Positions 1 to 31,237 of a DNA stretch of 64,000 nt are shown here, piece after piece (the stretch's first letter is position 1; the number at the start of each line of letters is the position of its first letter). Source of the stretch: Candidatus Komeilibacteria bacterium (GTDB lineage Bacteria > Patescibacteriota > Patescibacteriia > UBA1558 > UBA10009); NCBI GenBank assembly GCA_026396575.1, contig JAPLWM010000007.1, positions 11,546 to 75,545 on the forward strand, given 5' to 3'. The position numbers and the translations under genes are program-made. The notes under the pieces are model-generated. The model saw only the letters and a list, made by a program, of their open reading frames with translations, did not search any database and had not been told where the DNA came from.

Positions 1-1784
1 GCAACGCTTCATTTTTGGCTTCTTATCTGCTCTTTCATTTATTCATCGCCCTATTGTTTTTAGTGGAAAAAGCCGGTTTAAAATGGAAGTTTTATTACCT
101 GGCGGTTTTTATCGTTGATTTGGCGGTTTTACTGTTAACGGCTACCCGCGGCGCCCAATTGGCCCTATTCGCTTCGGTATTGGTTTTTATTATTTTTGTT
201 TTCGTTTTTAAAATTTGGCGGCAAAAAGCCATCAAGCTTCTTTTAGCCGGCTGTTTATTGCTGGCCGTTTTAATGGCCGTGGCTTTTATTTTTAAAAATA
301 CCGATTTGGTTAAAAATAATTATTGGCTGAGCCGCTTAACCTCTTATTCTTTCAGCGACAATACCGTGCAAACCAGATTGCACGCTTGGCGCTGGGGCTT
401 GGAGGGATTTAGGGATAATTTGCTGGTCGGCGTCGGTCCGGAAAATTTTCAGATTGTTTTTAATAAATATTTTCAGCCGGATTTTTATAATTATTCGGGC
501 AATGAAATTTGGTTTGACCGGGCGCATAATACCCTGGTGGACATGGCTTCAACCATGGGTATCTTCGGCCTGCTTAGTTACTTGGCTATTTTTGGCGCCA
601 TTGGGCTGGCGCTTTATAAATTATTCAAATCAGGCAATCTTTCGGCCTTGTCTTTCTTGATTATTTTCCTTTTATTTTTTTCTTATTTTATTCAAAATCT
701 CCTGGTTTTTGATTCTTTAAACAGCTTGATTGTTTTTTATTTAATTGTCGCTTATCTGGCTTATTTATTGGAAAGAACGGGCCAATTGCCGGGCAATAGC
801 CAGCTTAAACAGAGCCGTTGGCAGGTTAAGCCTTATTTTACCCTGCCTTTGGCCGGCGTTTTATTTTTAGTTTTGTTTTTTACCGTTAATTTGCCGGAAA
901 TCAGGGCTAATAAATACGTTTACAACGCTTATATCGATTCCCAATACGGCCATTACCAGAAATCGGTTCAGGAATACAATCAGGTTCATCAGGTAGCCGT
1001 AAATCGGCTGGATCCGGCTATTTTATTATCTTCTTCTTTAAGCGAGATGATCGGCCAAAATCCTAAAATTGCTGCCGCCGCCGTGGAAGTTGCGGATATA
1101 AAAAAAGCGATCGGCTGGCTGGACGAAGCGATTTCGCTTGATCCGAAAAACATGTTTCTTTATTATTTGCAGACTAAAAATTACATGGCCTTAACCGAGC
1201 TAACGCAGGACGTGAAATATTTGGAAAAAGGCCTGGAATTTGCCGATAAATCAATGGAACTGCGTCCGGGTGAAGTTAGAAATTACTGGGTTTTGGCCCA
1301 GCTTTATCTTTACGGCAGCCAGCCGGAAAAAGCCCTGACTTATCTGGAACAAGCTCAAAAAATGAATGACCGGCTGCCGGAAACATATTTTTATCTTTCC
1401 GTGGTTTATCAAAGCATGGGCAATCAGGAAAAATATTTTAACGAAACCGACCAAATGATTGATCATAATTTTGAATTCTTTTCCGCCGACCAGGTTAAAA
1501 AATTAATTCCTCATTATGACGAGCGGAAAGATTTAAGAAGATTGATTTATTTATATTCTAAATTAACCGGGCTGCAGCCGCAAGAGCCCAATTATTGGCT
1601 GGATTACGTTAATCTGCTGGCCCAGGATAAGCAATATGATCGAGCCTTGAAAGCCCTGCAAGAGGCCGCCGGTGCCATCCCGGCTTTTAGCAGCCGCGCT
1701 TACGGGCGGTATCAGGAAATTTTGCAGTTAAAAGAAACCGGAACAACTGCCGCTGGTAATTTAAGCACCACTACGCCTAATTAA
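1..1784 (+). CDS. O-antigen ligase (Wzy_C/WaaL-like) polytopic membrane domain fused to C-terminal TPR repeats. 5' end truncated by the window edge; the frame is open to position 3.
   Basis: The motif RAHNTLVDMASTMGIFGLL matches the Wzy_C periplasmic loop signature (H-N-x-x-L...E/D-x-G), with multiple TM helices before and after it. The C-terminal 300 aa are TPR-like helical repeats. There is no in-frame stop upstream of the TTG at 15, so the gene starts outside the window. Confidence 0.65.
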   Translation, partial: NASFLASYLLFHLFIALLFLVEKAGLKWKFYYLAVFIVDLAVLLLTATRGAQLALFASVLVFIIFVFVFKIWRQKAIKLLLAGCLLLAVLMAVAFIFKNTDLVKNNYWLSRLTSYSFSDNTVQTRLHAWRWGLEGFRDNLLVGVGPENFQIVFNKYFQPDFYNYSGNEIWFDRAHNTLVDMASTMGIFGLLSYLAIFGAIGLALYKLFKSGNLSALSFLIIFLLFFSYFIQNLLVFDSLNSLIVFYLIVAYLAYLLERTGQLPGNSQLKQSRWQVKPYFTLPLAGVLFLVLFFTVNLPEIRANKYVYNAYIDSQYGHYQKSVQEYNQVHQVAVNRLDPAILLSSSLSEMIGQNPKIAAAAVEVADIKKAIGWLDEAISLDPKNMFLYYLQTKNYMALTELTQDVKYLEKGLEFADKSMELRPGEVRNYWVLAQLYLYGSQPEKALTYLEQAQKMNDRLPETYFYLSVVYQSMGNQEKYFNETDQMIDHNFEFFSADQVKKLIPHYDERKDLRRLIYLYSKLTGLQPQEPNYWLDYVNLLAQDKQYDRALKALQEAAGAIPAFSSRAYGRYQEILQLKETGTTAAGNLSTTTPN

Positions 1785-2484: not shown

Positions 2485-4536
2485 ATGATTAAATTTAAAC
2501 TGCGGCTAAAAATTGCTATTTTAAGTTTAGCTTTTTTTGTTTTGTCCGGCAATTTGGCAATGGCGCAGGGAGCGGAAGTTTATCCCAATGACCCTTATTT
2601 AAAACAGCAGAATTATTTGCAACAAATCAACGCTTTGGCCGCTTGGTCCGCCATTAAGGAGAGTCCGGAAATAACGGTGGCGGTAATTGACAGCGGCGTG
2701 GATATTAATCATCCGGATCTGGTTGATAATATCTGGCATAACCCGGATGAAATTCCCGGCGACGGCCTGGATAACGATCATAACGGCTACGTTGACGATA
2801 CGGTGGGCTGGGATTTTATTTTAAACAGCCCGGATCCCAAGCCGAAATTTATCGGCGGGTACTCTAAATTGGGCATTGACCACGGCACGATTGTGGCCGG
2901 AGTAATCGGGGCGACGGGCAATAATAATTTCGGACTGGCCGGCTTATCCTGGAAAATTAAAATTATGCCATTAAGAGTTATGGATGGTAAAGGCATTGGC
3001 CAGACAGACGCGGTTTATCGGGCGATAAAATACGCCATTGATAAAAAAGCGGATATTATCAATTTAAGCATGGTCGGATCGGAATTTGACCCCAAGCTGG
3101 ATCAAGTGATTGCCGAGGCCTACCGGCAAGGCATTATAATCGTGGCGGCGGCCGGCAACGAAACCAACACCGAGGATTTGCAGGACGATTTCAGCTTGAA
3201 TTTGGCTTTGCATCCCCAGTATCCGATTTGCCACGACGGGGGCGAAGGGCATAATTATGTTTTAGGCGTGGGCGCGGTTGACGGTTTAGACCAAAAATCC
3301 CGTTTTTCCAATTATGGCTCCAAATGTTTGGATTTGGTGGCGCCTGGCGAAAGCTTCTTCGGCACTTTGTTTTATGATCCGGCCAAGCCCGATTTTAATA
3401 AATATTTCGGCGGTTATTGGTCCGGCACTTCTTTGGCCGCGCCGCAGGTTTCGGCAGCCGCCGCCCTGGTTAAGGCCTTGCGTCAGTCTTTAACCAACGG
3501 CGAAATTTACGATTTGCTTATAAAAAACAGTGATAATATTGATGCCTCTAACCCAACTTTTCAGGGCCTCTTAGGCGGCGGCCGATTAAATTTGGCCAAA
3601 GTAATGGCCGCGGCGGCAGCAACGCCTAAACAGGGTTTATCATTAATTCTCTCTCCGGCCGGAAAATTCGTTCCCCAGGTATTAACGGTTAATGAATCCG
3701 GCCAAGAACAAGGAAATTTTTTGGCTTACGATAAGAATTTTTTGGGCGGGGTTGATTTGGCTTCAGCCGATCTTAATAACGACGGTCAGAAAGAAATTAT
3801 TACTGGCGCCGGAACCGGCGGCGGGCCGCAAGTGCGGATTTTTAAAAGCGACGGTCAGGTTATAGGGCAGTTTTTTGCTTATGATAAGAAATTTAACGGG
3901 GGCATAAATATAGCCGCCGGCGATCTTGATGGCGACGGAGTCGTGGAAATTATCACCGCGCCTTTGGGCAAACTGGCGTCCCAAATTAAAATTTTTGATT
4001 CCGCGGGAAAATTAAAAAGCCAATTTTTGGCTTACGATAAGAATTTTTTGGGCGGAGTTAATTTGGCTTTAAGCGATATTAATGCAGACGGGATCAAGGA
4101 AATTGTGACTGCGCCCGGGCCTGGTAGCGCGCCGCTGGTTAAAGTTTTCAACGGTTCGGGCAAGTTGCTGGAAAATTTTCTAGCTTATGACAATAATTTT
4201 AAGGGCGGCGTGAAAGTGGCATCGGCTGATCTTTACGGCGATCAAAGAACCGAAATTATTACCGTGCCCGCCGGCAATTTTAAGCCGCAAGTTAGATTAT
4301 TTTCACCGGCCGGGGATATAGATTTACAATGGTTGGCGGCCGCGGCGGATTATTCAGGCGGTTTAAATTTAACAGCCGCGGGTCTTGAAAATAATAGCCC
4401 AGCGCAAATTATTATCAGCCAAAACGCCGGCGGCACCAGTGAAATAAAATTTTTTACGATTTTAGGGCAATTAACCCAAAGCTTCCCGGTTTGGGCAGGC
4501 GTTTATGGCGGCAACATTGATTTAACCGTTAAATGA
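2485..4536 (+). CDS. Secreted subtilisin-like serine protease (peptidase S8) with C-terminal FG-GAP repeats.
   Basis: Signal peptide, then the catalytic triad motifs AVIDSGVD (Asp), HGTIVAGVIGA (His) and GTSLAAPQVSAAAAL (Ser). The C-terminal third carries five or six repeats of FLAYDKNFxGGVxxAxxDxNxDGxxEIxT, which read as FG-GAP / integrin-alpha-like calcium-binding blades. Confidence 0.85.
   Translation: MIKFKLRLKIAILSLAFFVLSGNLAMAQGAEVYPNDPYLKQQNYLQQINALAAWSAIKESPEITVAVIDSGVDINHPDLVDNIWHNPDEIPGDGLDNDHNGYVDDTVGWDFILNSPDPKPKFIGGYSKLGIDHGTIVAGVIGATGNNNFGLAGLSWKIKIMPLRVMDGKGIGQTDAVYRAIKYAIDKKADIINLSMVGSEFDPKLDQVIAEAYRQGIIIVAAAGNETNTEDLQDDFSLNLALHPQYPICHDGGEGHNYVLGVGAVDGLDQKSRFSNYGSKCLDLVAPGESFFGTLFYDPAKPDFNKYFGGYWSGTSLAAPQVSAAAALVKALRQSLTNGEIYDLLIKNSDNIDASNPTFQGLLGGGRLNLAKVMAAAAATPKQGLSLILSPAGKFVPQVLTVNESGQEQGNFLAYDKNFLGGVDLASADLNNDGQKEIITGAGTGGGPQVRIFKSDGQVIGQFFAYDKKFNGGINIAAGDLDGDGVVEIITAPLGKLASQIKIFDSAGKLKSQFLAYDKNFLGGVNLALSDINADGIKEIVTAPGPGSAPLVKVFNGSGKLLENFLAYDNNFKGGVKVASADLYGDQRTEIITVPAGNFKPQVRLFSPAGDIDLQWLAAAADYSGGLNLTAAGLENNSPAQIIISQNAGGTSEIKFFTILGQLTQSFPVWAGVYGGNIDLTVK
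3700..4310 (+). repeat. Coding tandem repeats of about 120 bp (FG-GAP blades) inside the S8 protease gene.
   Basis: The peptide unit FLAYDKNFLGGV..A..DLN.DG..EIIT recurs five to six times in frame. Confidence 0.7.
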
Positions 4537-5018
4537 TTGATAAAATTTTTAACAATTCGGCGCTGCCTAAAGGTTTAATCTTAAGGGTTTTAAACAGATA
4601 TTTTTTCCGCTTCCCAGTTTTAAAACAGTTTATTAAATTTTCCTTGGTGGGCGTGGTCAATACTTTGATCGATTTTTCGATTTTTTTTATTTTAACCAGA
4701 ACCAGCCCATGGTTTAAAGCCAATTATTTAGCGGCTAACGCCATCGGTTTTTCTTTAGCTGTTACCAATAGCTTTTGGTTGAATAAAAAATGGACTTTTC
4801 AAGATCGGAATAAAACCAAGCTAACGAGGCAATATTTGAAATTTTTCGGCTTAAATTTTATGATTTTAATCATTACCGAGATTTGCCTTTATTATTTAAT
4901 TCAACATTTGAACGTTTATGATTTATTGGCTAAAGTTTTAATTGTTTTAATCAGCGTAATTATCAATTTTTTTATCAGCCGAAGCTTTATTTTTCCCAGC
5001 ATGACCCCTTCGGGGTAA
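4533..5018 (+). CDS. gtrA: GtrA-family membrane protein (polysaccharide synthesis / flippase-like).
   Basis: 161 aa with 4 TM helices. It has the FSLVGVVNTLIDF motif and NKKWTFQD, both characteristic of the GtrA family. It overlaps the upstream stop as ATGA. Confidence 0.7.
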   Translation: MIDKIFNNSALPKGLILRVLNRYFFRFPVLKQFIKFSLVGVVNTLIDFSIFFILTRTSPWFKANYLAANAIGFSLAVTNSFWLNKKWTFQDRNKTKLTRQYLKFFGLNFMILIITEICLYYLIQHLNVYDLLAKVLIVLISVIINFFISRSFIFPSMTPSG

Positions 5019-5031: not shown

Positions 5032-5060
5032 TTGCCAAAATTGGCTTTTTTAGTTATAAT
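5032..5060 (+). promoter_or_regulatory. Candidate sigma70-type promoter: TTGCCA, 17 nt spacer, TATAAT.
   Basis: TTGCCA at 5032-5037 and TATAAT at 5055-5060 with a 17 nt spacer, 16 nt upstream of the ATG at 5077. Confidence 0.45.
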
Positions 5061-5076: not shown

Positions 5077-5802
5077 ATGAATTTAAGCGTAGTCATCCCG
5101 GCTTTTAACGAAGAAAGCTGCTTAGTTTCCACTTTATCTCAAATTTACGGTTACTTTAACAATCGGCCAAATGGACTAGCCCGGTTAGCCGAAGTTATCG
5201 TGGTTGACGACGGTTCAACCGACCAAACGGCTGCGATAGTAAAAAACGCCGGTTTTGCAAATTTAAAGCTTATTTCGCACCGGCAAAATTTGGGCAAAGG
5301 CGCGGCCGTTAAAACGGGGGTAAAGGCCTCAATCGGCGAGGCGGTTTTATTCTTGGATGCCGATTATTCAACGAAAATTGAAGAGTTGGATAATTTTTTG
5401 CCAAAGTTGAATGAGTGTTGGGACATTATTATCGGCTCCCGGGGAATGCCAGATTCGCGAATTTTAAAGAGCCAACCAATATTTAAAGAGCTGCTTGGCA
5501 GATTGGGCAATTTATTGATTCGGTTGTTGGCGGTTCCGGGCGTGGCCGACAGCCAATGCGGCTTTAAGCTGTTTAATCGAAGGTCTTTGGCAATTTTTAA
5601 TCAGCAGACGATCCAGCGGTGGCTGTTTGACGTAGAATTATTGTTTATCGCCAAAAAATATGATTTTAAGATGCTAGAATTGCCCGTGGCTTGGACCAAT
5701 GATCGGTTTTCCAAAGTAAAAAAAAGCGATTATTTAAAAACTTTAATTGAACTTGTTAAAATAAGATTAAATGATTTAAAAGGACTTTATGAAAAAAAAT
5801 AG
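5077..5802 (+). CDS. Family 2 glycosyltransferase, polyprenyl-phosphate sugar transferase type (DPM/GtrB-like).
   Basis: VVIPAFNEE, VVDDGSTD and the DAD motif. At 241 aa it is a soluble catalytic domain only. It sits immediately downstream of gtrA. Confidence 0.75.
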   Translation: MNLSVVIPAFNEESCLVSTLSQIYGYFNNRPNGLARLAEVIVVDDGSTDQTAAIVKNAGFANLKLISHRQNLGKGAAVKTGVKASIGEAVLFLDADYSTKIEELDNFLPKLNECWDIIIGSRGMPDSRILKSQPIFKELLGRLGNLLIRLLAVPGVADSQCGFKLFNRRSLAIFNQQTIQRWLFDVELLFIAKKYDFKMLELPVAWTNDRFSKVKKSDYLKTLIELVKIRLNDLKGLYEKK

Positions 5803-6811
5803 CCAGGGAAGAAAAAATATTTTAATTGTTGGCGGGGCGGGCTTTATCGGCTCGCATTTAGCCGAGGTTTTAATTAAGGATAATAACGTTATCTGTTTGG
5901 ATAATTTTGTTACCAGCAACATGGAAAATATCCGCTGGCTGCTCTCTAACCCTCATTTTGAATTCATTAAGCACGATTTAACCGTAACCCTTAATTTAGC
6001 CGAATTGCCGGAATTGAAAAAATTTCAGCTGCCGGTTTTCGGCCTGCAGGAAATTTACAATTTGGCCTGCCCGACTTCGGCCAAAAATTTCGATAAATTA
6101 ACGGTGGAAACCGCTTTGGCCAATTCGGTTCTGGTAAAGAACGTTCTGGATTTGGCTTTAAAATATAAAGCCAAGCTGCTGCACGCTTCTTCGGCCGTGG
6201 TTTACGGCCCCAGGCAAAGCAACAATTACGTTAAAGAGGATTACCAAGGGCTGGTTAATTTTACCGGTCCCCGAAGCTGTTATGATGAAGGCAAGCGCTT
6301 TGCCGAAAGCTTAATCAGCACTTACCGGCAGTTTTACAAGCAGGATTTTAAAATCGCTAGAATTTTCAGGACCTATGGCCCGCGGCTGGCCTTAAACGAC
6401 GGCCAGATGATTTCCGATTTTATTTTTAACGCTTTGGATAACAAGGATTTGGTAATTTACGGTGACAAGAATTTTTCCACCGCCTTGTGCTATATCGACG
6501 ATCTGGTGGACGGCTTGCTTAAATTGATGGCCAGCTCCATTACCGAACCGGTTAATTTCGGCAGCAACGTTGATACGCTCTTAACCGAGGTGGCGGCTAA
6601 AATCATCAAGTTAACCGGCTCCGGTTCCAAAATCGTTTACCAGCCGAGTTTGGATTTTATCACTTCCTTAACTTTGCCGGATATTACTTTGGCCAAGTCG
6701 CATTTGGGCTGGTATCCTTTGGTCAGCTTGGATAAGGGTTTGGAAAAAACTTTGGAATATACCCGGGCCAATAAACAATTATTAACCAGCATCATTAATC
6801 ATAATAATTAA
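5789..6811 (+). CDS. NAD-dependent epimerase/dehydratase, UDP-glucuronate decarboxylase (UXS)-like paralog.
   Basis: Rossmann motif [10 protein letters not shown], then [18 protein letters not shown] and [10 protein letters not shown], the UXS/ArnA-type signature blocks. The block around the catalytic Tyr is divergent (SSAVVYG). Confidence 0.6.
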
Positions 6812-6824
6812 TTTTAAAGATCAA

Positions 6825-7982
6825 ATGTCCAAATACATTTTTACTTCGGAATCGGTAACCGAAGGCCATCCGGATAAAGTTTGCGACCAAATTTCCGACG
6901 CTATTTTAGACGAATTAATCAAACAGGATCCCGATACTCATGCCGGCATCGAATGTTTGGCTACTACCGGTTTGGTCGTGGTAGCCGGCGAGGTTAGAAC
7001 CAAGGGTTATGCCGACATTGCCGGGCTGGTGCGCAAAACCATCAAGGAAATCGGCTATGACAATTCTTCCAACGGTTTTTCCGGCGATGATTGCGGCGTT
7101 ATCGTGGCTTTGGACGAGCAATCGCCTGATATTGCCCAAGGCGTGGATAAGGGCAAGGGCAAGTTTAAAGAGCAGGGCGCCGGCGACCAGGGCTTGATGT
7201 TCGGCTATGCCTGCCGGGAAACCAAAGAGTTAATGCCTTTGCCGCTGATGTTGGCCCATAAAATGGCCAAGCGTTTGGCCCAAGTGCGCAAAAACGGCAC
7301 TTTAAAATATCTTAGGCCGGATGGTAAAACCGAAGTAGCTGTGGAATATAATAATGGCAAGCCCACCAGAATTGATACGGTGGTAGTGGCGGCCCAGCAT
7401 AACGAAAATGTTTCCGAAGCTAAAGTGGCTAAAGATATCATTAAATACGTAGTTAAGCCGATTGGCGGCAAGTATTTGGACGCCAAAACCAGATATTTTA
7501 TCAATGCTACCGGCAAGTTCATTAAAGGCGGTCCGCCGGCCGATGCCGGCTTAACCGGCCGCAAGATCATCGTGGATACTTACGGCGGGCACGGTTCCCA
7601 TGGCGGCGGCTGTTTTTCCGGCAAAGACCCTTCCAAGGTTGACCGCAGCGCTTCGTATATGGCCCGTTACATTGCCAAAAATATCGTGGCTGCCGGACTG
7701 GCCGATAAGTGCGAAGTTCAGCTGGCTTACGTTATCGGCCGGGCCGAACCGGTAAGCGTTTTGGTGCAAACATTCGGCACCGGCAAACTGCCCAATGAGC
7801 GTTTGGAAAAAATCGTGCGCCAATATTTTCCTTTAAAACCCGCCGGCATTATCAAGCACTTAAAACTGCAGCGCCCGATTTACAAGCAAACCGCGGCATA
7901 CGGCCATTTTGGCAGAACGGAAACGGGCTTTACTTGGGAAAAAACGGATTTGGCGGCCAAATTAAGGAAATATTTAAAGTAA
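6825..7982 (+). CDS. metK: S-adenosylmethionine synthetase.
   Basis: The N-terminus [24 protein letters not shown] carries the hallmark GHPDK motif of MetK. 385 aa. Confidence 0.9.
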
Positions 7983-7987
7983 AAATT

Positions 7988-8896
7988 ATGAAGATTTTAG
8001 TGACCGGCGGCGCCGGCTTTATCGGCTCGCATCTGGTTGATAAGTTGATTGAAAAAAAACATCAAGTGGCGGTGGTGGATAATCTTTCCACCGGCAAAAG
8101 AAGCTTTGTCAATGCCAAAGCCAAGTTTTATAAAACCAGCGTTACCAATCCCAAATTAAAGGCAATTTTTAACCGGGAAAAACCGGAAATTGTTTTTCAT
8201 TTGGCCGCCCAAAAAAGCGTGCCTTTTTCCCTGACCCATCCTTTGGAAGACGCCACGATTAATATTTGGGGCTCTTTGAAAGTAATTGAAAACTGCCTAA
8301 GGTTGAAAGTGAAGAAATTCATTTTTATGTCCACCGGCGGCGCTATTTACGGCCAAACCCGTTTTTTACCCTGGTCCGAAAGCGCGCCGCAAACTCCGCT
8401 CTCGCCTTACGGCTTAAGCAAGCTTACCGTGGATAATTATTTATTGAATTATTACGGCCCTTTGCGGAAATTGAATTTTATCTGCCTGCGCCCGGCAAAT
8501 GTTTATGGGCCGCGCCAGGATCCCAGCGGCGAAGCCGGGGTCATTGCCATTTTTGTCAATAATTTATTGCATCATAAAAAATGTTATCTTAACGGCACCG
8601 GAGTCGCTACCAGGGATTATATTTATGTTTCCGATATCGTGGAAGCGGCCGTTAAAGTCATTGGCAAGGGCAGGGGAGTTTACAATTTGGGCACCGGCAA
8701 AGAAACTTCGGTAAAATTCTTGTATCATCTAATTGCCGGCTTGATTTCGCCGGTAAAACCGGAATTTCGGCCGGCCATTGCCGGCGAAGTTTTACGCAGC
8801 GCTTTAAAATCGATTAAAGCCAAAAAGGATTTAAGTTGGGAACCGGAAATAGATTTAATTAATGGCATTAAGAAAACCATTGAGTATTTTAAATAG
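7988..8896 (+). CDS. NAD-dependent nucleotide-sugar epimerase (UDP-glucose 4-epimerase family, GalE-like).
   Basis: [16 protein letters not shown] Rossmann fold, YGLSK (YxxxK) and VYGPRQDP. The true start is the ATG at 7988; the upstream extension of the ORF track overlaps metK. Confidence 0.65.
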   Translation: MKILVTGGAGFIGSHLVDKLIEKKHQVAVVDNLSTGKRSFVNAKAKFYKTSVTNPKLKAIFNREKPEIVFHLAAQKSVPFSLTHPLEDATINIWGSLKVIENCLRLKVKKFIFMSTGGAIYGQTRFLPWSESAPQTPLSPYGLSKLTVDNYLLNYYGPLRKLNFICLRPANVYGPRQDPSGEAGVIAIFVNNLLHHKKCYLNGTGVATRDYIYVSDIVEAAVKVIGKGRGVYNLGTGKETSVKFLYHLIAGLISPVKPEFRPAIAGEVLRSALKSIKAKKDLSWEPEIDLINGIKKTIEYFK

Positions 8897-8897
8897 T

Positions 8898-9854
8898 ATG
8901 CGGATATTGGTAACCGGCGGGGCGGGTTTTATCGGCTCGCATTTAATTGATTATTTAATGGCCCAGGGGCATCGGGTAATAGCCGTTGATAATTTTTTAA
9001 GCGGCAAAAAGGCCAATATCGCCCGGCATTTCCACAATCCCAATTTTAAATTTATCAAGCACGATATTTCTTTGCCCTTAAATGCCAAACTTGGCCCGCT
9101 GGATCAGATTTACAATTTGGCCTGTCCGGCTTCACCGCTGCAGTATCAAGTAAATCCTTTAAAAACCTGGCAAACCAATGTTTTCGGCACGGGCTTGATG
9201 CTGGAATTGGCCCGTAAAAATTCCGCTCGCCTGTTGCAGGCCTCCACTTCCGAAGTTTACGGCGACCCCAAGGAACATCCCCAAAAAGAATCCTATTTCG
9301 GCAATGTTAATCCGCTGGGCGATCGCTCTTGCTACGACGAAGGCAAGCGCGCGGCCGAAACGCTTTGCTATATTTATCGCGCCAAGTATAAAACAGACGT
9401 TAAAATCGCCCGGATTTTTAATACTTACGGGCCGAGAATGATTTTCAGCGATGGCCGGGCTTTGCCGAATTTTATCAAGCAGGCCTTAACCAATGAGCCA
9501 TTAACGATTTTTGGCAGCGGCCGGCAAACCCGCAGCTTGATGTACATTGACGATTTAATCTTAGGCTTGGTTAAATTAATGAATCGCCCTAATTTTTTCG
9601 GGCCGGTTAATTTGGGCAATCCCAATCAGGAAATCAATATTTTGGCTTTGGCAAAAAAGACCATCAAACTTTGCCATTCTAAAAGTCAGCTGAAATTTCA
9701 AGCTTTGCCCGAAGATGATCCGATCAAACGAAGGCCGGCGATTGCTTTGGCCAAAAAAACCCTGGGTTGGTCGCCCGGAGTCAGTTTGGAGCAAGGGCTT
9801 AAAGCGACGATCAAGGATTTTAAAGCCCGGCTTAATAATCCAGCGGCAAAATGA
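8898..9854 (+). CDS. uxs: UDP-glucuronate decarboxylase (UDP-xylose synthase).
   Basis: [44 protein letters not shown] and ARIFNTYGPRM give a near-textbook UXS motif set. Start is the ATG at 8898. Confidence 0.8.
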   Translation: MRILVTGGAGFIGSHLIDYLMAQGHRVIAVDNFLSGKKANIARHFHNPNFKFIKHDISLPLNAKLGPLDQIYNLACPASPLQYQVNPLKTWQTNVFGTGLMLELARKNSARLLQASTSEVYGDPKEHPQKESYFGNVNPLGDRSCYDEGKRAAETLCYIYRAKYKTDVKIARIFNTYGPRMIFSDGRALPNFIKQALTNEPLTIFGSGRQTRSLMYIDDLILGLVKLMNRPNFFGPVNLGNPNQEINILALAKKTIKLCHSKSQLKFQALPEDDPIKRRPAIALAKKTLGWSPGVSLEQGLKATIKDFKARLNNPAAK

Positions 9855-11011
9855 ATAAGCGGATTTTAATTTATGCCACAGCGTACCTGCCCTTGGTTGG
9901 CGGCGCCGAAGTGGCGGTTAAGGAAATTACCGATCGCCTAGCAGGCTATGATTTTGATTTGATTACCGCTTTAATGGATAAAAAATTAGCCAGAGCGGAA
10001 AAAATCGGCCGAGTGAATGTTTACCGCCTGGGCTGCGGCTGGCCGAAATTTGATAAATTATATTTAGCGCTGTTCGGGCATTATAAGGGCTGGCAATTGC
10101 ATCGGCAAAAAAAATATGACCTGGTTTGGGCAATTATGGCCAGTTTTGGCGGTTTTGCCGCTTTAAGCTTTAAATTAAAAACAAAAATTCCTTATTTATT
10201 GACTTTACAGGAAGGCGATCCGATCGAGGAAATTTTAAATAAAGTTAAATTGGTCAGAGGCAGATTCAATGAGATTTTTATCGCTTCCGACGCTTTGCAG
10301 CCCATCAGCAGCTATTTGGCCGCTTGGGGCGAAAAAATGGGGTTTGCCGGTAAAATTAGCGAAGTTATCCCCAATGGCGTTGATGTCGGTTTATTTACCA
10401 AAGAATATTTTAAAGAAGAAATCGGCGCTTTAAGACGCAGTTTCGGTTTTCCGGCCGATTCGGTTATTGCGGTAACATCTTCCAGATTGGTAATAAAAAA
10501 CGGCGTGGGCGACGTTATTAAGGCCTTAAAAAATTTACCGGCCGATTTTTGTTTTTATATCTGCGGCAGCGGGCCTTTGGAAAACAAGTTAAAACAATTA
10601 ACTGAAGATTTGCATTTGGAGCAAAGGGTAAAATTCGGCGGTTATAAAAGCCACGATGAATTGCCGAAAATCCTCAAGGCCGGCGATATTTTTATCAGGC
10701 CTTCCCTCAGTGAAGGTTTGGGCAATTCTTTTTTGGAAGCCATGGCCGCGGGTTTGCCAACCATCGGCACTTTAGTCGGGGGCATTCCCGATTTTTTAAT
10801 TGAAGGCCAAACCGGTTTGGTTTGCCAGCCCGGCGATAGCCAAAGCATCGGCGAAACAATTTTAAGGGCCAGCCGCCTGTCGGTTGAAGAAAAAAAACGG
10901 CTGCACCGCAATGCCCTTATCCTGGTTAAAGAAAAATATAACTGGGACTGCGTTGTCGCCCGTTTGGATTTATTATTCAATCGATTATTAAATAGCAAAA
11001 ACAATTTATGA
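9851..11011 (+). CDS. Family 4 (GT-B) glycosyltransferase.
   Basis: C-terminal EGLGNSFLEAMAAGLPTIGT (the E-x7-E GT4 motif). Confidence 0.75.
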   Translation: MNKRILIYATAYLPLVGGAEVAVKEITDRLAGYDFDLITALMDKKLARAEKIGRVNVYRLGCGWPKFDKLYLALFGHYKGWQLHRQKKYDLVWAIMASFGGFAALSFKLKTKIPYLLTLQEGDPIEEILNKVKLVRGRFNEIFIASDALQPISSYLAAWGEKMGFAGKISEVIPNGVDVGLFTKEYFKEEIGALRRSFGFPADSVIAVTSSRLVIKNGVGDVIKALKNLPADFCFYICGSGPLENKLKQLTEDLHLEQRVKFGGYKSHDELPKILKAGDIFIRPSLSEGLGNSFLEAMAAGLPTIGTLVGGIPDFLIEGQTGLVCQPGDSQSIGETILRASRLSVEEKKRLHRNALILVKEKYNWDCVVARLDLLFNRLLNSKNNL

Positions 11012-12291
11012 AAGTTACCATTATCGGCTTAGGTTACGTGGGCTTAGTAACCGCCGTCGGTTTGTCCGAGTTGGGGCACCAGGTCTTTGGCTGCGATACC
11101 GACCCGCAGAAGATCGCTTCTTTAAAAAAGGGCCAAGTGCCGTTTTACGAACCCGGCTTGGATAAGCTGCTCAAAAAAAATTTTAAGAGCGGCCGTTTGG
11201 TTTTTACCGCTAATTTGGCAGAGATTATAAATCAAGCCCCGATTATTTTTATTTGCGTGGGTACGCCGGCAGCCAAGAGCGGCCAAGCCGATTTAAGCTA
11301 TGTGGAGTCGGCCCTTAAAACCATCGCCCAAACGGCCAAGACCGGAAAAATCATCGTGATCAAAAGCACGGTGCCGGTGGGCACCAGTGAAAAATTTGAA
11401 AAACTCCTTAATCCTCATGGCCAAAAATTTCCTTTTATTTCCTGTTCGGAATTTTTACGGGAAGGCCTGGGGGTAAATGATTTTTTCCAACCTGACAGGA
11501 TTATCGTGGGCGCCACTCGGCGGGCTTTGGCTTTAAAAGTGCTTAATCTTTTTGCCAAAATCAAAACCATTAAGTTTATTACCAACCGGGAAACGGCGGA
11601 GTTGATTAAATACACGGCTAATTCCTTTTTGGCCATGAAAATTTCCTTTATCAACGAAATTGCCAATTTATGCGAAAAAGTGGGCGCCGATGTTATGGAC
11701 GTGGCTTGGGGCATCGGTTTGGATAAGCGGATCAATCCTTTATGGCTTAAAGCGGGCATCGGCTATGGCGGCAGCTGTTTTCCCAAGGATGTTTGGGCTT
11801 TGCGGCGGATTGCCGAAAACGCCGGCTATGATTTTAAAATTTTAAAATCGGTGATCGAGGTTAATCAAAGGCAATCCGAATTATTCATTAAAAAAATCCA
11901 AGGGCATTTCGGCCAGCTTAATGGTTTAACCATCGGGGTTTTGGGCCTGGCTTTTAAAAACGATACCGATGATATCAGGGATTCGGTGGCTTTAAGGGCG
12001 ATTGAACAATTAGTTAGTTTGGGCGTAAAAGTGAAAGCTTATGATCCGCTGGCCATGCCCAATGCCAAAAAGTTTTTTGCGCCTAAAATAACTCTCTGCC
12101 ATTCGGCCGGAGAGGTGTTTAAAAATTCTCGAGCCGTGGTTATTGCCACCGAATGGCCGCAGTTTAAAAATCTGCCTTGGCAAAAATTTGGCCGGAGCCT
12201 GAAAGAGCGCGTAATTTTTGACGGTAAGAATTTATTGGATCCGGCAACCATGGAAAAATTAAAGTTTAAGTATTATTCAATCGGCCGATGA
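11008..12291 (+). CDS. ugd: UDP-glucose 6-dehydrogenase.
   Basis: MKVTIIGLGYVGL NAD-binding N-terminus and the GGSCFPKD catalytic-Cys motif. 427 aa. Confidence 0.85.
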   Translation: MKVTIIGLGYVGLVTAVGLSELGHQVFGCDTDPQKIASLKKGQVPFYEPGLDKLLKKNFKSGRLVFTANLAEIINQAPIIFICVGTPAAKSGQADLSYVESALKTIAQTAKTGKIIVIKSTVPVGTSEKFEKLLNPHGQKFPFISCSEFLREGLGVNDFFQPDRIIVGATRRALALKVLNLFAKIKTIKFITNRETAELIKYTANSFLAMKISFINEIANLCEKVGADVMDVAWGIGLDKRINPLWLKAGIGYGGSCFPKDVWALRRIAENAGYDFKILKSVIEVNQRQSELFIKKIQGHFGQLNGLTIGVLGLAFKNDTDDIRDSVALRAIEQLVSLGVKVKAYDPLAMPNAKKFFAPKITLCHSAGEVFKNSRAVVIATEWPQFKNLPWQKFGRSLKERVIFDGKNLLDPATMEKLKFKYYSIGR

Positions 12292-12947
12292 AAACCTTTA
12301 TCGTTATTCCTTGTTATAACGAAGCCGAGCATTTGGCCAAAGTTATCGCGGCGGTTAAACCTTACGGCCAAGTGGTGCTGGTGGACGACGGTTCCACCGA
12401 CCAAAGTTTTAACATTGCCAAAAATTGCGGAGTAATTGTTTTGCGCCATCTGGTTAACCGCGGCATGGGCGCGGCTTTGGAAACGGGGGATAGCTACGCA
12501 TTTAAGCACGGCGCTGATGTGGTTGTTCATTTTGATGCCGACGGCCAGCATCTGGCCGAAGAAATTCCCCGGGTTATAGAACCTATTAGCCAAGGAAAAG
12601 TTGACGTAGTTTTAGGTTCAAGGTTTTTAGATCCGGGCAATAACGTGCCTTTTCTAAAAAAACTGTTAATTTTAAAGCCGGCGATTTTATTTCAAAATTT
12701 ATTGCTGGGCGTTAAATTAACCGATGCCCATAACGGTTTCAGGGCTTTGTCCTACGCGGCGCTCTCTAAAATAAAAATCACTCAGGACGAATTCGCCCAT
12801 GCCACCGAAATTATAGAGCTTATCAAGGCTCATAATTTAAGGTATCAGGAAGTTCCCGTGACCGTTAAGTATCACGAATTCGGCCAGGGATTTTCCACCG
12901 GCTTGAAAATTTTAAAGGATTTGTTTTTTGGAAAAATTAACAGATAA
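12288..12947 (+). CDS. Family 2 glycosyltransferase (polyprenyl-phosphate sugar synthase-like).
   Basis: IVIPCYNEAEHL, VLVDDGSTD and DADGQH motifs. Confidence 0.75.
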   Translation: MKTFIVIPCYNEAEHLAKVIAAVKPYGQVVLVDDGSTDQSFNIAKNCGVIVLRHLVNRGMGAALETGDSYAFKHGADVVVHFDADGQHLAEEIPRVIEPISQGKVDVVLGSRFLDPGNNVPFLKKLLILKPAILFQNLLLGVKLTDAHNGFRALSYAALSKIKITQDEFAHATEIIELIKAHNLRYQEVPVTVKYHEFGQGFSTGLKILKDLFFGKINR

Positions 12948-12952
12948 ATTAT

Positions 12953-13300
12953 ATGAACTATTTGCCTTTGCAGATTATCGTCAGTTTATTCGTTCTCTTG
13001 GTAATTTTTCGGTTAAGCAGAAAATTCAAGGACAGTATTTTAAAAACTTCTGAATTTATCGGCTGGCTGGTTATTTGGGCGGTGGTTTTAGTGGCGTTTT
13101 GGCTGCCCAATACCGCTTCTTACTTGGCTTTATTGGTGGGTATTGGCCGCGGCGTGGATTTGGCGGTTTACTCGGCTATTTTAATTATCTTTTATTTGAT
13201 TTTCCGCCTTTATTTAAAGCACGATAAGCAGCAGCAGCAAATTACCAAAATTATCAGGCATCTGGCTTTAAAAGAGGAGGATGAGAAAAAGCCGCAATAA
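12953..13300 (+). CDS. DUF2304-like small membrane protein (usual partner of GT2 enzymes).
   Basis: 115 aa with 3-4 TM helices and the motif GIGRGVDLAVYSAILIIFYLIFRLY, which I recognise from DUF2304 proteins that routinely follow DPM-like GT2 genes. Confidence 0.55.
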   Translation: MNYLPLQIIVSLFVLLVIFRLSRKFKDSILKTSEFIGWLVIWAVVLVAFWLPNTASYLALLVGIGRGVDLAVYSAILIIFYLIFRLYLKHDKQQQQITKIIRHLALKEEDEKKPQ

Positions 13301-14328
13301 TGAAAAAAGTCGCCATCTTAATCGTTAATTATAACGGCCAGCAGTATCTCCCGGACCTTTTGGAGAGTGTTTTTAAATATAGGCCCCAAAGCGTTTTTTT
13401 TGAAACGATCGTGGTGGATAACGCTTCAATTGATGATTCCGTTGCCTGGCTGGTTAAAAATTATCCGCAAGTTACCTTGCTTAAACAATCGGAAAATTTC
13501 GGTTTTGCCGGAGGCAACAATATCGGCATTAAATACGCTTTAAATAAGGGTTATGATTACGTGATGCTGTTAAATCAGGATACCGTTGTCAGCCAGGGCT
13601 ATTTGGATAAATTAATCGAAAAAATCGAAGCGGTGCCTGCTGCGGCGGCCGTTCAGCCCAAATTATTGCTTTACCCTTTAACCGATTTGGTCAACAGTTT
13701 GGGCAACGTGATTCATTATTTGGGTTTTGGCTATACGGCCGCTAAACCGATTTTAAATAACGAGGTTAATTACTGTTCCGGCGCGGCTTGCTTGATTTCC
13801 GCGGCGGCTTTTAAAAAAGTCGGCTTATTTAACGAAGAGCTGTTTATGTACCATGAGGATTTGGATTTGGGCTGGCGCTTCCGCTTAAGGGGCTATAAAA
13901 ATTTAGTGGAGCCAAAAAGCGCGGTTTACCATAAATACGAATTTTCCCGCAGCATTAAGAAATATTATTTTTTGGAAAGAAACCGCTTTATGGTAATATT
14001 GCAGAATTACAAAATAGGCACCTTGGTTTTAATTTTACCGGCTTTAATTTTAATGGAGCTGGGTTTATTTCTCTTTTCTTTTAGCAACGGCTGGTGGCTG
14101 GAAAAATTGAAAGTTTATCGGTATTTTTTCAGTTTAAAAAATTGGCAAAAAATATTTAAAACTAGAAAACAGATTCAAGGCCATAGAAGCCGGCCGGATC
14201 GCTTGATTGTTAAGGATTTTGCCGGCACCATCGAGCATCAGGAAATTAATTCGCCTTTGGTTGCTTGCTTAGTTAACCCGCTGTTTAACGCTTATTGGCG
14301 GATAATTAAGCCGTTAATTTTATGGTAA
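13300..14328 (+). CDS. Family 2 glycosyltransferase (GT-A, rhamnosyltransferase-like).
   Basis: AILIVNYNGQQYL, VVDNASIDDS and QDT motifs, with C-terminal TM helices. Confidence 0.7.
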   Translation: MKKVAILIVNYNGQQYLPDLLESVFKYRPQSVFFETIVVDNASIDDSVAWLVKNYPQVTLLKQSENFGFAGGNNIGIKYALNKGYDYVMLLNQDTVVSQGYLDKLIEKIEAVPAAAAVQPKLLLYPLTDLVNSLGNVIHYLGFGYTAAKPILNNEVNYCSGAACLISAAAFKKVGLFNEELFMYHEDLDLGWRFRLRGYKNLVEPKSAVYHKYEFSRSIKKYYFLERNRFMVILQNYKIGTLVLILPALILMELGLFLFSFSNGWWLEKLKVYRYFFSLKNWQKIFKTRKQIQGHRSRPDRLIVKDFAGTIEHQEINSPLVACLVNPLFNAYWRIIKPLILW

Positions 14329-15482
14329 TGGAGCAAAAGCTTAAAATCGCCCAAGTGGTTTCCACTTTTCCGCCTTATCGCGGCGGCATGGGCAACGTCG
14401 CTTTTAATTTGGCCGATAATTTAAGCCGCTTGGGCTATGAAGTGACGGTTTTTTCGCCGCAACGGCATTTCGGCCATTTAAATCTTGACAGTTATTTTAA
14501 AATCCATAGATTACAGCCGCAATTAAGGTACGGCAATGCCGCCGTAGTTTTGCAATTATTTTTTTATCTTTTAAAGTATGACATCGTTCATTATCATTAC
14601 CCTTTTTTAGGCGCTTCCTTAGCCACCACTCTGGCTAAGCTGATTAAAGGCAAGAAACAGAAATTAATCGTGCATTATCATATGGATTTAGTCGGCCAGG
14701 GTTGGAAAGCCGCCATTTTTAAAATATACAACTGGTCGCATTTGCGCGGCTTATTTTTAATCGCCGATAAAATTATCGTGACTTCCGATGATTATTTGAC
14801 TAAATCCTTAATTTATCCCCTGGCCCAAAAATATTGGGAGAAATTTTGCATTTTGCCCAACGGCGTTAACCTTGATTATTTTAAGCCAGCTGCCAAAGAT
14901 CCGGCTTTAACCCATAAATACCAGCTTAAAGACAAAAAGGTCATTTTATTCGTTGGCGCCCTGGACAGCGCCCATTATTTTAAGGGCGTCAATTATCTAA
15001 TCAAGGCGATGGAAAATTTAAGCCGAGAGGATATTAAACTGATTATCGTGGGCGAAGGCGAGTTAAGGTCGGTTTATGAAGATATGGTTAATTCTTACGA
15101 TTTAAACAATCGGGTAATTTTTACCGGCTACGTGCCCGACGAAGAATTGGTTAAGTTTTATAATCTGGCCGATATTTTCGTTCTGCCTTCCATTGATAAA
15201 ACCGAGGCCTTTGGCATGGTTTTACTGGAAGCCATGGCTTGCGCCAAGCCGGTGGTGGCTTCCAGCTTGCCGGGCGTGAGGGAAGTGGTGGAAGTAAAAA
15301 AGAACGGCCGTTTGTTCAAGCCTAAAGATGTGGCCGGTTTGGTGGAGCAATTGAACGTTTTGCTTAACCAGCCGGAGTTAGCCAAGGAATACGGGCTATA
15401 CGGCCGGGCCAAGGTGGAGGCCTGTTACAGCTGGTCGAAAATTACCGAGGAGCTGTTAAAAATCTACCAAGCCGATTTATGA
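14322..15482 (+). CDS. Family 4 glycosyltransferase.
   Basis: EAFGMVLLEAMACAKPVVAS (E-x7-E motif) and an N-terminal Glyco_trans_4-like domain. Confidence 0.75.
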   Translation: MVMEQKLKIAQVVSTFPPYRGGMGNVAFNLADNLSRLGYEVTVFSPQRHFGHLNLDSYFKIHRLQPQLRYGNAAVVLQLFFYLLKYDIVHYHYPFLGASLATTLAKLIKGKKQKLIVHYHMDLVGQGWKAAIFKIYNWSHLRGLFLIADKIIVTSDDYLTKSLIYPLAQKYWEKFCILPNGVNLDYFKPAAKDPALTHKYQLKDKKVILFVGALDSAHYFKGVNYLIKAMENLSREDIKLIIVGEGELRSVYEDMVNSYDLNNRVIFTGYVPDEELVKFYNLADIFVLPSIDKTEAFGMVLLEAMACAKPVVASSLPGVREVVEVKKNGRLFKPKDVAGLVEQLNVLLNQPELAKEYGLYGRAKVEACYSWSKITEELLKIYQADL

Positions 15483-16687
15483 GATTTTGCCTGATTAACA
15501 ACTTATATCCGCCCATTGATCGTGGCGGCGCCGAGCGGATTGTGGAATTGATCGCTGAAGAGCTTAAAAAGCGCGGCGAAGTTTTAGTGATTACTTCACA
15601 GCCGGATTGGCTATTGGATCGCCAGAAAATCGGCGATTTTGAAATTTGCCGGCTTAATCCTTTGAATATTTATCATCTTTTGGAAGCTAATAAGCAAACT
15701 GCCAGGCGCAAGCTTCTTTGGCATTTTAATGATTTATTCAAGCGGCCCGTTTTGCATCAGGTTGGAAAAATTTTAAGCGAGAAACCGGTTGATTTTGTTT
15801 TCACCCATAATTTAAAAGGCTTAAGTCTGGGCATTCCCAAGATTATCCGTAAATTGAAATTAACCCAGATCCACACCCTTCACGATTATCAGCTTTTGGA
15901 CCCGCACGGTTCTTTGCACCGCCAGGGCCAAAATTTGGCCTTAAAACACGGCTTTTATCCTTTATACAGGTATTTCACCAGGCAAGCCATAAAATCGCCC
16001 AGCTTGGTTGTTTCGCCCTCCAAATTCGTTTTGGACAAGCACTTGGAGTATGGATTTTTTAAGAAGTCCAAAACCGTTGTTTTGCCTAATCCCGTAGAAT
16101 TGTCTGGTGCTGAATTGCAATTACCCAAGGTTGTTAGCGATAAATTAAGAATTTTATATTTAGGCCAGATCGAACCCCATAAAGGCGTAAAATTTTTAGT
16201 TGATTCTTTTGTAAAATGGAATAATGCCAATGCCGAATTAACCATTGCCGGCGAGGGGAGCGAGTTGCAAAAAATCAATGAATCAATGAATCAAAAAATC
16301 AATGAATCGGCCAGATCAAGGATTAAAATTTTAGGGAAAGTGGCCAGGGAGAAGTTGCCGGAGTTATTCGCCGCCGCCGATTTATTGGTGGTGCCTTCAA
16401 TGTGGTGGGAAAATTCGCCCACGGTAATTTACGAGGCCTACGGTTATCAAGTGCCTGTTTTAGTTGCCAATACCGGCGGAGCTCCGGAATTGGTAAAAAA
16501 CGGAACAACCGGTTTTATTTTTACAGCCGATAATCAGGAAGATTTAATTGATAAATTAAATGCGGCTTTGAAACAAAAGGACAAATTGCCTGAACTTGGC
16601 AAACAGGGTTATGAATTCATTAAACATTTCGAGGTTAAAAATTATGTGGATAAATTATTGGAGTTATGCCAAACTTTGAAGAAATAA
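15479..16687 (+). CDS. Family 4 glycosyltransferase.
   Basis: ENSPTVIYEAYGYQVPVLVANTGGAPELV. It contains an in-frame micro-repeat KINESMNQKINES at 16268-16300. Confidence 0.7.
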   Translation: MRFCLINNLYPPIDRGGAERIVELIAEELKKRGEVLVITSQPDWLLDRQKIGDFEICRLNPLNIYHLLEANKQTARRKLLWHFNDLFKRPVLHQVGKILSEKPVDFVFTHNLKGLSLGIPKIIRKLKLTQIHTLHDYQLLDPHGSLHRQGQNLALKHGFYPLYRYFTRQAIKSPSLVVSPSKFVLDKHLEYGFFKKSKTVVLPNPVELSGAELQLPKVVSDKLRILYLGQIEPHKGVKFLVDSFVKWNNANAELTIAGEGSELQKINESMNQKINESARSRIKILGKVAREKLPELFAAADLLVVPSMWWENSPTVIYEAYGYQVPVLVANTGGAPELVKNGTTGFIFTADNQEDLIDKLNAALKQKDKLPELGKQGYEFIKHFEVKNYVDKLLELCQTLKK

Positions 16688-17562: not shown

Positions 17563-17568
17563 ACTATA

Positions 17569-28749: not shown

Positions 28750-28753
28750 TTAA

Positions 28754-31171: not shown

Positions 31172-31237
31172 AGGAGTTGTCTTTTTGCTTAAAAAGTATT
31201 AAAATAGTTAGTGTTATTGGCTACTAAACAATATACT

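Follow-up and report, generated by a model that had tools for sequence, protein, structure and literature searches.

The 64,000-nucleotide stretch of contig JAPLWM010000007.1 analysed here, from a Candidatus Komeilibacteria bacterium (the window, whose numbering is used throughout), carries a co-directional, gap-free array of glycan genes on the plus strand, as read from its open reading frames (ORFs) and from family searches. Within it, genes for sugar-nucleotide synthesis – encoding, among others, a UDP-glucose 6-dehydrogenase (Ugd), a canonical UDP-glucuronate decarboxylase (UDP-xylose synthase, UXS) and a GalE-like epimerase – follow the gene for a second, divergent relative of UXS, a short-chain dehydrogenase/reductase (SDR) of the extended type, referred to below as PAR, for 'paralog'. 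The picture that we consider reasonably probable is one of two units: a UDP-xylose cassette lodged in a glycosylation cluster, and PAR as a neofunctionalised, non-decarboxylating SDR belonging to the core of that cluster.

Neighbouring genes of the array lie within 13 nucleotides (nt) of each other or overlap by 1-35 nt, and 4-nt stop/start overlaps recur; operon structure is read from this spacing alone. The 3' end of the first small glycosyltransferase gene (GT2a) overlaps the start of the PAR gene by 14 nt, the UXS gene has an alternative start at Met13 (8898, as in the NCBI annotation), and the best promoter-like match falls within the 58-nt gap 5' of GT2a (Table 1). Terminator-like hits within the array did not exceed shuffle expectation. 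The genes that an initial annotation had named were all recovered on the plus strand, at or near the positions it had assigned, by ORF list, family and structure searches, and the GalE-like epimerase and glycosyltransferases are indeed co-located with Ugd and UXS. That annotation had overlooked metK, however, and of the multiple glycosyltransferases that it placed between 5789 and 12291 only the GT4 enzyme lies inside these limits, the GT2 genes flanking them on either side.

Table 1. Features of the array and its surroundings, in window coordinates
Feature	Position	Strand	Basis
Wzy_C (O-antigen-ligase-like) membrane protein with TPR repeats	15..1784	+	Pfam Wzy_C 77.6 bits, TPR families
TPR protein	upstream of the array, listed with Wzy_C-TPR (15-1784) and the S8 gene (2485-4536)
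S8 subtilase with FG-GAP repeats	2485..4536	+	Pfam Peptidase_S8 157 bits, FG-GAP_3 41 bits
GtrA-family small membrane protein, putative flippase for polyprenyl-phosphate sugars	4533..5018	+	Pfam GtrA_DPMS_TM 99.8 bits
Sigma-70-like promoter, best match of the region	5032..5060	+	TTGCCA-17-TATAAT, 11/12 positions; consensus match only
Small GT2 (GT2a), polyprenyl-phosphate glycosyltransferase type	5077..5802	+	Pfam Glycos_transf_2 85.9 bits
UXS-derived extended SDR (PAR)	5789..6811	+	226 bits against human UXS1
metK, S-adenosylmethionine synthetase	6825..7982	+	TIGR01034 558.9 bits (cut-off 309)
GalE-like NDP-sugar 4-epimerase, TM0509/Rv3634c type	7988..8896	+	PDB 4ZRM 279 bits, 7YS8 238 bits
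Canonical UDP-glucuronate decarboxylase (UXS)	8862..9854	+	356 bits against human UXS1
GT4 glycosyltransferase (GT4a)	9851..11011	+	Pfam Glycos_transf_1 117 bits
UDP-glucose 6-dehydrogenase (Ugd)	11008..12291	+	three UDPG_MGDP_dh domains, GGSCFPKD
GacI/PpgS-like GT2, polyprenyl-phosphate (N-acetyl)hexosamine synthase type	12288..12947	+	NF058614 PpgS 165 bits (cut-off 370); AglJ 87 bits
DUF2304 small membrane protein, GacJ/Rv3632-like putative activator of the preceding GT2	12953..13300	+	Pfam DUF2304 83 bits
Core glycosyltransferase, GT2	13300..14328	+	Pfam
Core glycosyltransferase, GT4	14322..15482	+	Pfam
Core glycosyltransferase, GT4	15479..16687	+	Pfam
Methyltransferase (class I)	16666..17562		Pfam
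SET-domain ORF	17511..17939		Pfam
PMT_2-family GT-C glycosyltransferase, presumed extracytoplasmic, polyprenyl-phosphate-sugar-using	20184..21791	+	Pfam PMT_2 52.6 bits

A probable route to UDP-xylose

The three UDPG_MGDP_dh domains of Ugd (200, 126 and 113 bits) and its catalytic-cysteine motif are accompanied by a TIGR03026 score of 447 bits (cut-off 190) and by matches to solved bacterial UDP-glucose dehydrogenases of up to 345 bits (PDB 4A7P). Against the TuaD model the protein reaches 482 bits – below the TuaD equivalog cut-off of 700, yet far above its scores as a UDP-ManNAc dehydrogenase (222) or a UDP-GlcNAc dehydrogenase (TviB, 73) – so that the three domains, the catalytic Cys and a preference in score for UDP-glucose over N-acetylhexosamine (HexNAc) models are all found together.

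The UXS protein, 100% identical to database entry P0121, contains the motifs STSEVYG, YDEGK and DDPxKRR and groups with 141 canonical UXS. An alignment anchored on Escherichia coli ArnA, which reproduces the numbering of PMC12820599 (Table 3), equates its T129, S130, E131, Y158, K162 and N187 with T118, S119, E120, Y147, K151 and N176 of human UXS1 (hUXS1), and its R290, Y95, A90 and R155 with hUXS1 R277, Y84, A79 and R144; the same columns correspond to ArnA T432, S433, E434, Y463, K467, N492, R619, Y398, A393 and R460. Besides the catalytic triad, the protein thus has Ser119, Glu120 and Arg277 – distinctive UXS features, which never vary in UXS and which the counterpart epimerases lack (Eixelsberger et al., PMC3438964) – as well as the further signature of Tyr84, Arg144, Asn176 and Ala79 (PMC12820599, Table 3), and is a member of the group represented by hUXS1 (2B69/4GLL) and the bacterial UXS.

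Because of the domains, motif and scores of Ugd and the full UXS signature, the route from UDP-glucose via UDP-glucuronate to UDP-xylose is well supported by sequence. Ugd would oxidise UDP-glucose to UDP-glucuronate, which the canonical UXS would convert into UDP-xylose through C4 oxidation, decarboxylation and re-reduction, and GT4a would use one of the donors made by the cassette, an assignment that we infer. With the two genes in one co-directional array, the UDP-xylose supply proposed by the initial annotation is very likely real. It is nonetheless routine biochemistry, already annotated in Patescibacteria (UXS in Kerfeld-, Lipton- and Kuenenbacteria). A literature search that paired Patescibacteria or the candidate phyla radiation with either UDP-xylose or UDP-glucuronate decarboxylase gave no hits. 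The accompanying view that xylose-containing glycans are unusual in bacteria appears overstated: among the scan matches listed, canonical UXS occur in Proteobacteria, Bacteroidota, Cyanobacteria, Planctomycetota, Verrucomicrobiota, Acidobacteriota, Actinomycetota, Firmicutes, Spirochaetota and others, and 144 of the 145 canonical UXS among these matches have the motif STSE[VI]YG. Some canonical UXS homologues are 515-527 residues long (P0150, P0166, P0189 and P0235), and as at least one of them has a domain of the GT4 N-terminal type, fusions of UXS with glycosyltransferases are indicated. A reading of the GT4a/Ugd pair as a TuaC/TuaD teichuronic-acid module was discarded on account of its scores; TuaC, the top NCBIfam match of GT4a, reaches only 104 bits against a cut-off of 550, and TuaD falls short as given above.

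The nearest solved relatives of the GalE-like protein, TM0509 of Thermotoga maritima and Rv3634c of Mycobacterium tuberculosis, are genuine epimerases. The protein has the Tyr-x-x-x-Lys pair (Y141 and K145) and the phosphate-binding Arg (R209, corresponding to GalE R231), scores 171 bits against TIGR01179 (cut-off 262), and would invert C4 of a UDP-sugar, most likely UDP-Glc/Gal and UDP-GlcNAc/GalNAc. At the position of the bulky gatekeeper Tyr299 of E. coli GalE it has Ser, which – going by the GalE classes – we take to be compatible with N-acetylated substrates. Since the gene is present in relatives both with and without UXS, it has no specific link to UDP-xylose; UDP-Xyl/Ara may be a further pair of substrates.

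A UXS relative with a replaced active site

PAR is clearly derived from UXS and is not an isolated divergent copy. Its match to hUXS1 (2B69) is followed at a distance by that to the next solved structure (90 bits), with 85-90 bits for GalE and 46-50 bits for ArnA, and its predicted model (pLDDT 89.7) also finds hUXS1 as the best structural match (TM-scores 0.86/0.94, 39% identity). In a neighbour-joining tree the PAR family is monophyletic in 200/200 bootstraps and stands inside or beside UXS, grouping with UXS in 125/200 and with UXS plus ArnA in 152/200, and well apart from ArnA itself, RfbB and GalE. The phylogenetic check suggested by the initial annotation thus bears it out in placing both SDRs in the UXS clade rather than with 4,6-dehydratases or GalE. 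The family comprises at least 120 database clusters of 56-100% identity, and every source-named one among those listed comes from Patescibacteria. Three family loci with typical Patescibacteria synteny (L006, L008 and L009) belong to metagenome-assembled genomes titled 'uncultured Gammaproteobacteria', probably through a binning or labelling error; otherwise they would reflect transfer outside Patescibacteria.

The fold, the NAD site and the catalytic Ser/Thr-Tyr-Lys triad (Ser135/Tyr165/Lys169) of UXS are intact in PAR, as are the YDEGKR motif and Arg144 (R162 in PAR), and the NAD glycine motif GGAGFIGSH is invariant both in the family alignment and in a census of 62 members. The block SSAVVYG, which had been placed around the catalytic Tyr, corresponds instead to the catalytic Ser/Thr region (T118-S119-E120 in hUXS1), and the Tyr block proper, YDEGK with Y165 and K169, is unaltered. 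PAR differs from UXS in a predicted extra helical insertion of 10-14 residues after strand 3 (residues ~66-84), in a hydrophobic loop, LLFMTPLGLP, that replaces the polar DDPxxRxP, and above all in its active site.

The census compared the 62 family members with the 141 canonical bacterial UXS among the scan matches listed; the scan, made with the family alignment, returned mostly canonical UXS and only four family loci among these matches, and the UXS therefore served as the comparison set. In hUXS1 numbering, T118 is Thr in 141/141 UXS and Ser in 59/62 family members, and S119, invariant in UXS (141/141), is gone in half of the family (Ala in 28/62, Ser in 28/62; A136 in PAR). E120 (ArnA E434) is Glu in all 141 UXS and never in the family, where Val (55), Ala (5), Ser (1) or Thr (1) takes its place (V137 in PAR). 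N176 (ArnA N492; Asn in 141/141) has become Arg in 53/62 members (R194), Y84 (ArnA Y398; Tyr in 140/141) Phe in 56/62 (F101) and A79 (ArnA A393; Ala in 140/141) Thr in 61/62 (T96), and R277 (ArnA R619), Arg in 141/141 UXS, is Gly, Pro, Cys, Ala, Thr or Leu and never Arg (T295). Two further arginines are affected: that of the DGR motif (ArnA R510), present in 140/141 UXS, is mostly Gln or Glu, with Arg kept in 7/62, and that of the QTR motif (ArnA R535, GalE R231), present in 141/141, is Thr in 52/62 and never Arg. Y147, K151 and R144, by contrast, are kept, bar one Phe at Y147.

Among the seven signature residues common to hUXS1, ArnA and UAXS (PMC12820599, Table 3), five are thus replaced in at least 85% of the family – Glu120 and Arg277 in every member – and Arg144 is the only one that the family retains; PAR itself has none of Glu120, Arg277, Asn176, Tyr84, Ala79 and Ser119. 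More broadly, the family retains 73 of the 105 columns that are invariant in UXS and has changed the other 32, the replacements being themselves conserved and on average more hydrophobic (by +1.5 Kyte-Doolittle units over the 32 columns). In hUXS1, the exchange E120A lowers kcat ~100-fold, and R277Q lowers it ~1300-fold and stalls the enzyme at UDP-4-keto-pentose (PMC3438964); the conserved Arg (ArnA R619) has been described as the recognition mark of glucuronate decarboxylases, keto-sugar releasers included (PMC10338323). Because the signature residues are lost, PAR falls outside the UDP-glucuronate decarboxylases of either product type, and with two further UXS-invariant arginines also gone, the second UXS/ArnA-like decarboxylase of the initial annotation is unlikely. 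Family members are labelled in databases as "UDP-glucuronate decarboxylase", "GDP-mannose 4,6-dehydratase" or "NAD-dependent epimerase/dehydratase"; as the residues for decarboxylation are absent, these labels, and UDP-xylose reconstructions built on them, are probably wrong.

Conserved core and variable cassette

Across 26 loci carrying a member of the PAR family, the most constant neighbour is an S8 subtilase, usually with FG-GAP repeats. It lies 5' of the family gene in 18/19 loci with enough flank, either adjacent or with only GtrA and/or a small GT2 between them, a pairing that is as yet unexplained. In two loci where the surrounding genes are housekeeping genes, the S8 gene (8517-11026 in L098, 241-2753 in L094) and the SDR gene overlap by 4 nt. 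A small GT2 of the polyprenyl-phosphate type stands directly beside the family gene in 19/24 evaluable loci, either upstream (the GT2a type) or downstream (the PpgS/GacI type with DUF2304). Canonical UXS, on the other hand, occurs in only 2/26 loci (L087 and L088), as does a Ugd of the UDP-glucose type (L086 and L087), so the wiring of PAR to the UDP-xylose supply, as first proposed, is not borne out: its constant partners are the peptidase and the small GT2, not Ugd and UXS.

In loci that lack the cassette, the GacI/PpgS-like GT2 directly follows the PAR-family gene; three of them (L002, L004 and L169) show the order S8, GtrA, SDR, GT2, DUF2304, GT2, GT4, GT4, a 700-residue ORF on the opposite strand, and PMT_2. 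Even among the closest relatives the intervening genes vary: L086 has metK-GalE-GT4-Ugd and no UXS, L087 metK-GalE-UXS-Ugd and no GT4, and L088 GalE-UXS-GT4 (the GT4 gene partial) and no metK, which is also found in L096. Because these contents differ, the segment 6825-12291 is to be seen as a variable sugar-nucleotide cassette between the conserved SDR and the GacI-like GT2. PAR belongs to the conserved core, not to the cassette, and the best explanation is that the cassette (metK, GalE-like, UXS, GT4 and Ugd) and the core cluster are two units with different histories. Four further loci carry a dehydrogenase of the UDP-HexNAc type (L089, 8142-9404; L151, 146-1471; L170, 11982-13325; L171, 2342-3637), ~30% identical to the Ugd of the window and scoring best as UDP-ManNAc/UDP-GlcNAc dehydrogenase. 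Since the dehydrogenase types differ, the cassette would supply different uronic acids in different lineages.

The core is a surface-glycosylation cluster found across Patescibacteria. Its gene order is Wzy_C-TPR, S8/FG-GAP, GtrA, small GT2, SDR, GacI/PpgS-like GT2 with DUF2304, GT2, GT4, GT4 and PMT_2. Wzy_C-TPR homologues precede the S8 gene in L004, L086, L088 and L095; the position of GtrA is the same in L004, L086-L089 and L169-L171; the GT2-GT4-GT4 order is kept in L002, L004, L086 and L169; and PMT_2 also ends the cluster in L002, L003 and L169.

In composition the core resembles two known systems. In Streptococcus pyogenes, GacI (GT2) and GacJ (DUF2304) make GlcNAc-phosphate-undecaprenol, whose sugar the GT-C enzyme GacL transfers outside the membrane, and PpgS and Rv3632 of M. 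tuberculosis act likewise (bioRxiv 10.1101/180810). As in GacI/GacJ/GacK/GacL and PpgS/Rv3632/Rv3779, a small GT2 gene is followed, here after 5 nt, by DUF2304 (12288-13300), with a GT-C gene in the same cluster – an order also found in L002, L004, L086, L169 and L171 – and a small flippase-like membrane protein is encoded nearby; M. tuberculosis moreover has its GalE-type epimerase Rv3634c near Rv3631/Rv3632 (PMC5389812). The flippase candidate of the window, however, is of the GtrA type and not Wzx-like, and the S8 peptidase, the Wzy_C-TPR protein and the UXS-derived SDR have no place in either of these systems. Homology stays below equivalog thresholds, that of PpgS included (Table 1), and GT2a likewise scores below each cut-off with its best NCBIfam matches (PpgS 71, PgfS 66 and ArnC 55 bits). 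By analogy, the core probably works as these systems do: a GT2 would charge polyprenyl phosphate with a sugar, a small membrane protein would flip it and a GT-C enzyme would transfer it outside the cell; the donor of each glycosyltransferase and the final acceptor are likewise a matter of inference.

The reaction of PAR

Since PAR keeps the NAD site and the catalytic Ser, Tyr and Lys but has lost the residues for binding and decarboxylating UDP-glucuronate, it is, to judge from these residues, most likely a C4 redox or epimerase-type enzyme that does not decarboxylate. It would oxidise and re-reduce C4 of a neutral sugar, as an epimerase or a keto-reductase, and would serve the adjacent polyprenyl-phosphate GT2 by acting on its nucleotide-sugar donor or, as a second choice, on its lipid-linked product. 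In lacking the Glu and Arg of UXS it is like the epimerases (GalE, Bacillus cereus 6ZLA, Rv3634c and TM0509; compare PMC3438964), and its S-A-V strand resembles S124-A125-T126 of E. coli GalE; unlike them, it has no equivalent of GalE R231, and Arg in place of their Asn179 or Thr178. Because of this lost arginine and of the hydrophobic remodelling, more than one substrate comes into question: the first choice would be a nucleotide sugar with an unprecedented mode of binding, with a polyprenyl-phosphate sugar as a serious alternative.

Several observations weigh against this account. The loss of the arginines aligned with ArnA R510/R535 and GalE R231 runs contrary to conventional UDP-sugar binding, which weakens the case for a nucleotide sugar. 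In five loci PAR has no glycosyltransferase neighbour, just the S8 peptidase and then housekeeping genes, so the link to the GT2 is frequent and not universal. In a Komeilibacteria-like subclade, seven contigs, matched by their length, carry both a PAR-family gene and Ugd (among the best 120 matches listed), and there PAR may have a role downstream of UDP-glucuronate. Finally, the E120A and R277Q variants of hUXS1 still decarboxylate slowly (PMC3438964), so that residue loss alone is no proof that decarboxylation is absent.

The last two points lead to the possibility, which we consider improbable, that PAR is a second UDP-glucuronate decarboxylase with an altered product, for instance UDP-4-keto-pentose as in ArnA, feeding a series of ArnC-like GT2, GtrA and ArnT-like PMT_2. 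It is of UXS descent; hUXS1 R277Q stalls at UDP-4-keto-pentose and E120A partly releases it (PMC3438964), and a natural protein with both losses could be a 4-keto-pentose synthase. The PAR gene overlaps that of a small ArnC-like GT2 (64 bits to E. coli ArnC by tblastn), Ugd stands in the same array, as both genes do on the seven related contigs, and in L171 a DegT aminotransferase and an SMR-like gene lie ~9 kb downstream. The small GT2, the small flippase-like membrane protein and the GT-C enzyme near PAR do recall the Arn system, but superficially. The ArnA decarboxylase domain, which converts UDP-glucuronate into UDP-4-keto-arabinose in E. coli, shares the extended SDR fold; PAR has no counterparts of its S433, E434, N492, R510, R535 and R619 and no formyltransferase domain, the arginines aligned with R510 and R535 being gone from the family. 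The natural 4-keto-pentose formers ArnA and EvdS6 retain the Glu, the Asn and the conserved Arg (PMC10338323, PMC12820599), the hUXS1 variants are 100- to 1300-fold slower than the wild type (PMC3438964), and the carboxylate-side positions of PAR are Ala/Val, like the S-A-T of GalE, rather than polar. Ugd is missing from the surrounding 10 kb in most loci, the dehydrogenases of L089, L151, L170 and L171 being of the UDP-HexNAc type; that PAR-bearing contigs of 860, 886 and 941 kb are not among the best 120 Ugd homologues is merely suggestive in the same sense. The whole window was also searched by tblastn for an Arn-type aminoarabinose pathway, with two DegT proteins and E. coli ArnB, ArnC, ArnD, ArnT and ArnE as queries. 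This pathway was rejected, as only weak GT2/SDR matches resulted: no ArnB/DegT, ArnD, ArnT or ArnE homologue lies within the 64 kb.

A somewhat better case, though still a doubtful one, can be made for PAR having left nucleotide sugars altogether, to oxidise or epimerise C4 of a polyprenyl-phosphate-linked sugar or of another hydrophobic (phospho-)substrate. All three arginines that bind UDP-glucuronate (ArnA R510, R535, which equals GalE R231, and R619) are replaced; cleft positions appear to have turned hydrophobic (Q222F, D285M/I, Q289L, R291L/I, E120V and P283L); and new near-invariant basic residues (Lys at UXS position 93, Arg at 136 and Arg at 187) could bind a single phosphate. The adjacency of a polyprenyl-phosphate-type GT2 in 19/24 loci, and of GtrA in many, would fit as well. 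DprE1/DprE2, which act on decaprenyl-phospho-ribose, offer a precedent for redox chemistry on a sugar already on polyprenyl phosphate, DprE2 being the SDR reductase; DprE2, however, is a classical SDR that works at C2 and needs a flavoenzyme partner, whereas PAR is an extended SDR, would act at C4 and has no sequence relationship to them. On the other side, no extended SDR of the UXS kind is known to us to work on lipid-linked sugars, neither a transmembrane nor a clearly amphipathic segment was recognised in PAR, and five loci have no GT2 nearby. If true, an extended SDR would here be editing sugars at the lipid level, in an envelope module that is Patescibacteria-wide and genetically coupled to an S8 surface peptidase.

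It is very improbable, lastly, that PAR is a catalytically dead UXS relic kept for a structural or regulatory partnership, for instance with the S8 peptidase or the GT2, even though most substrate-binding residues are lost and the tight pairing with the peptidase has no obvious enzymatic rationale. A 12-residue motif, the Asp after strand 2, Ser135, Tyr165, Lys169 and Arg162 vary little or not at all among 62 members that are only ~55-75% identical, and the replaced positions are fixed to new residues (Val, Arg, Thr and Phe in 52-61 of the 62). Such conservation of new residues points to selection for a new site, not to decay.

Some neighbouring genes may be recorded for completeness. The metK gene sits inside the glycan array, and a methyltransferase, the SET-domain ORF and an S-adenosylhomocysteine hydrolase gene (24892-26148) lie nearby, which hints at methylated sugars or a local S-adenosylmethionine cycle. 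Adjoining the PMT_2 gene, the minus strand encodes a ~700-residue protein without a Pfam match (17936-20035), which has counterparts (251-313 bits), likewise on the opposite strand beside PMT_2, in several Patescibacteria loci (L002, 15946-18078; L169, 15346-17433). Further on there is a dTDP-rhamnose gene set (26283-29829) with RmlB-like (26283-27284), RmlD (27931-28749) and RmlA (29104-29829) genes, the ORF in the RmlC position (27281-27934) giving no Pfam hit. Genes for a PEGA-domain protein, an S41 CtpB-like peptidase and a CTP synthase, ~20 kb downstream in the window (29831-35922), directly adjoin the isolated GT2-SDR pair of L001 (11102-17041), with a MurA-like gene in the window only; their presence at both places suggests rearrangement of one ancestral neighbourhood.

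As for their meaning, the UDP-xylose genes mainly indicate that some Komeilibacteria can display glucuronate- or xylose-derived sugars on their surface. The more useful outcome is that a Patescibacteria subfamily with a remodelled active site, large, conserved and so far uncharacterised, has been recognised. It is a natural experiment in re-tooling the UXS scaffold and also serves as a marker of a core envelope cluster in organisms about whose surface chemistry hardly anything is known.

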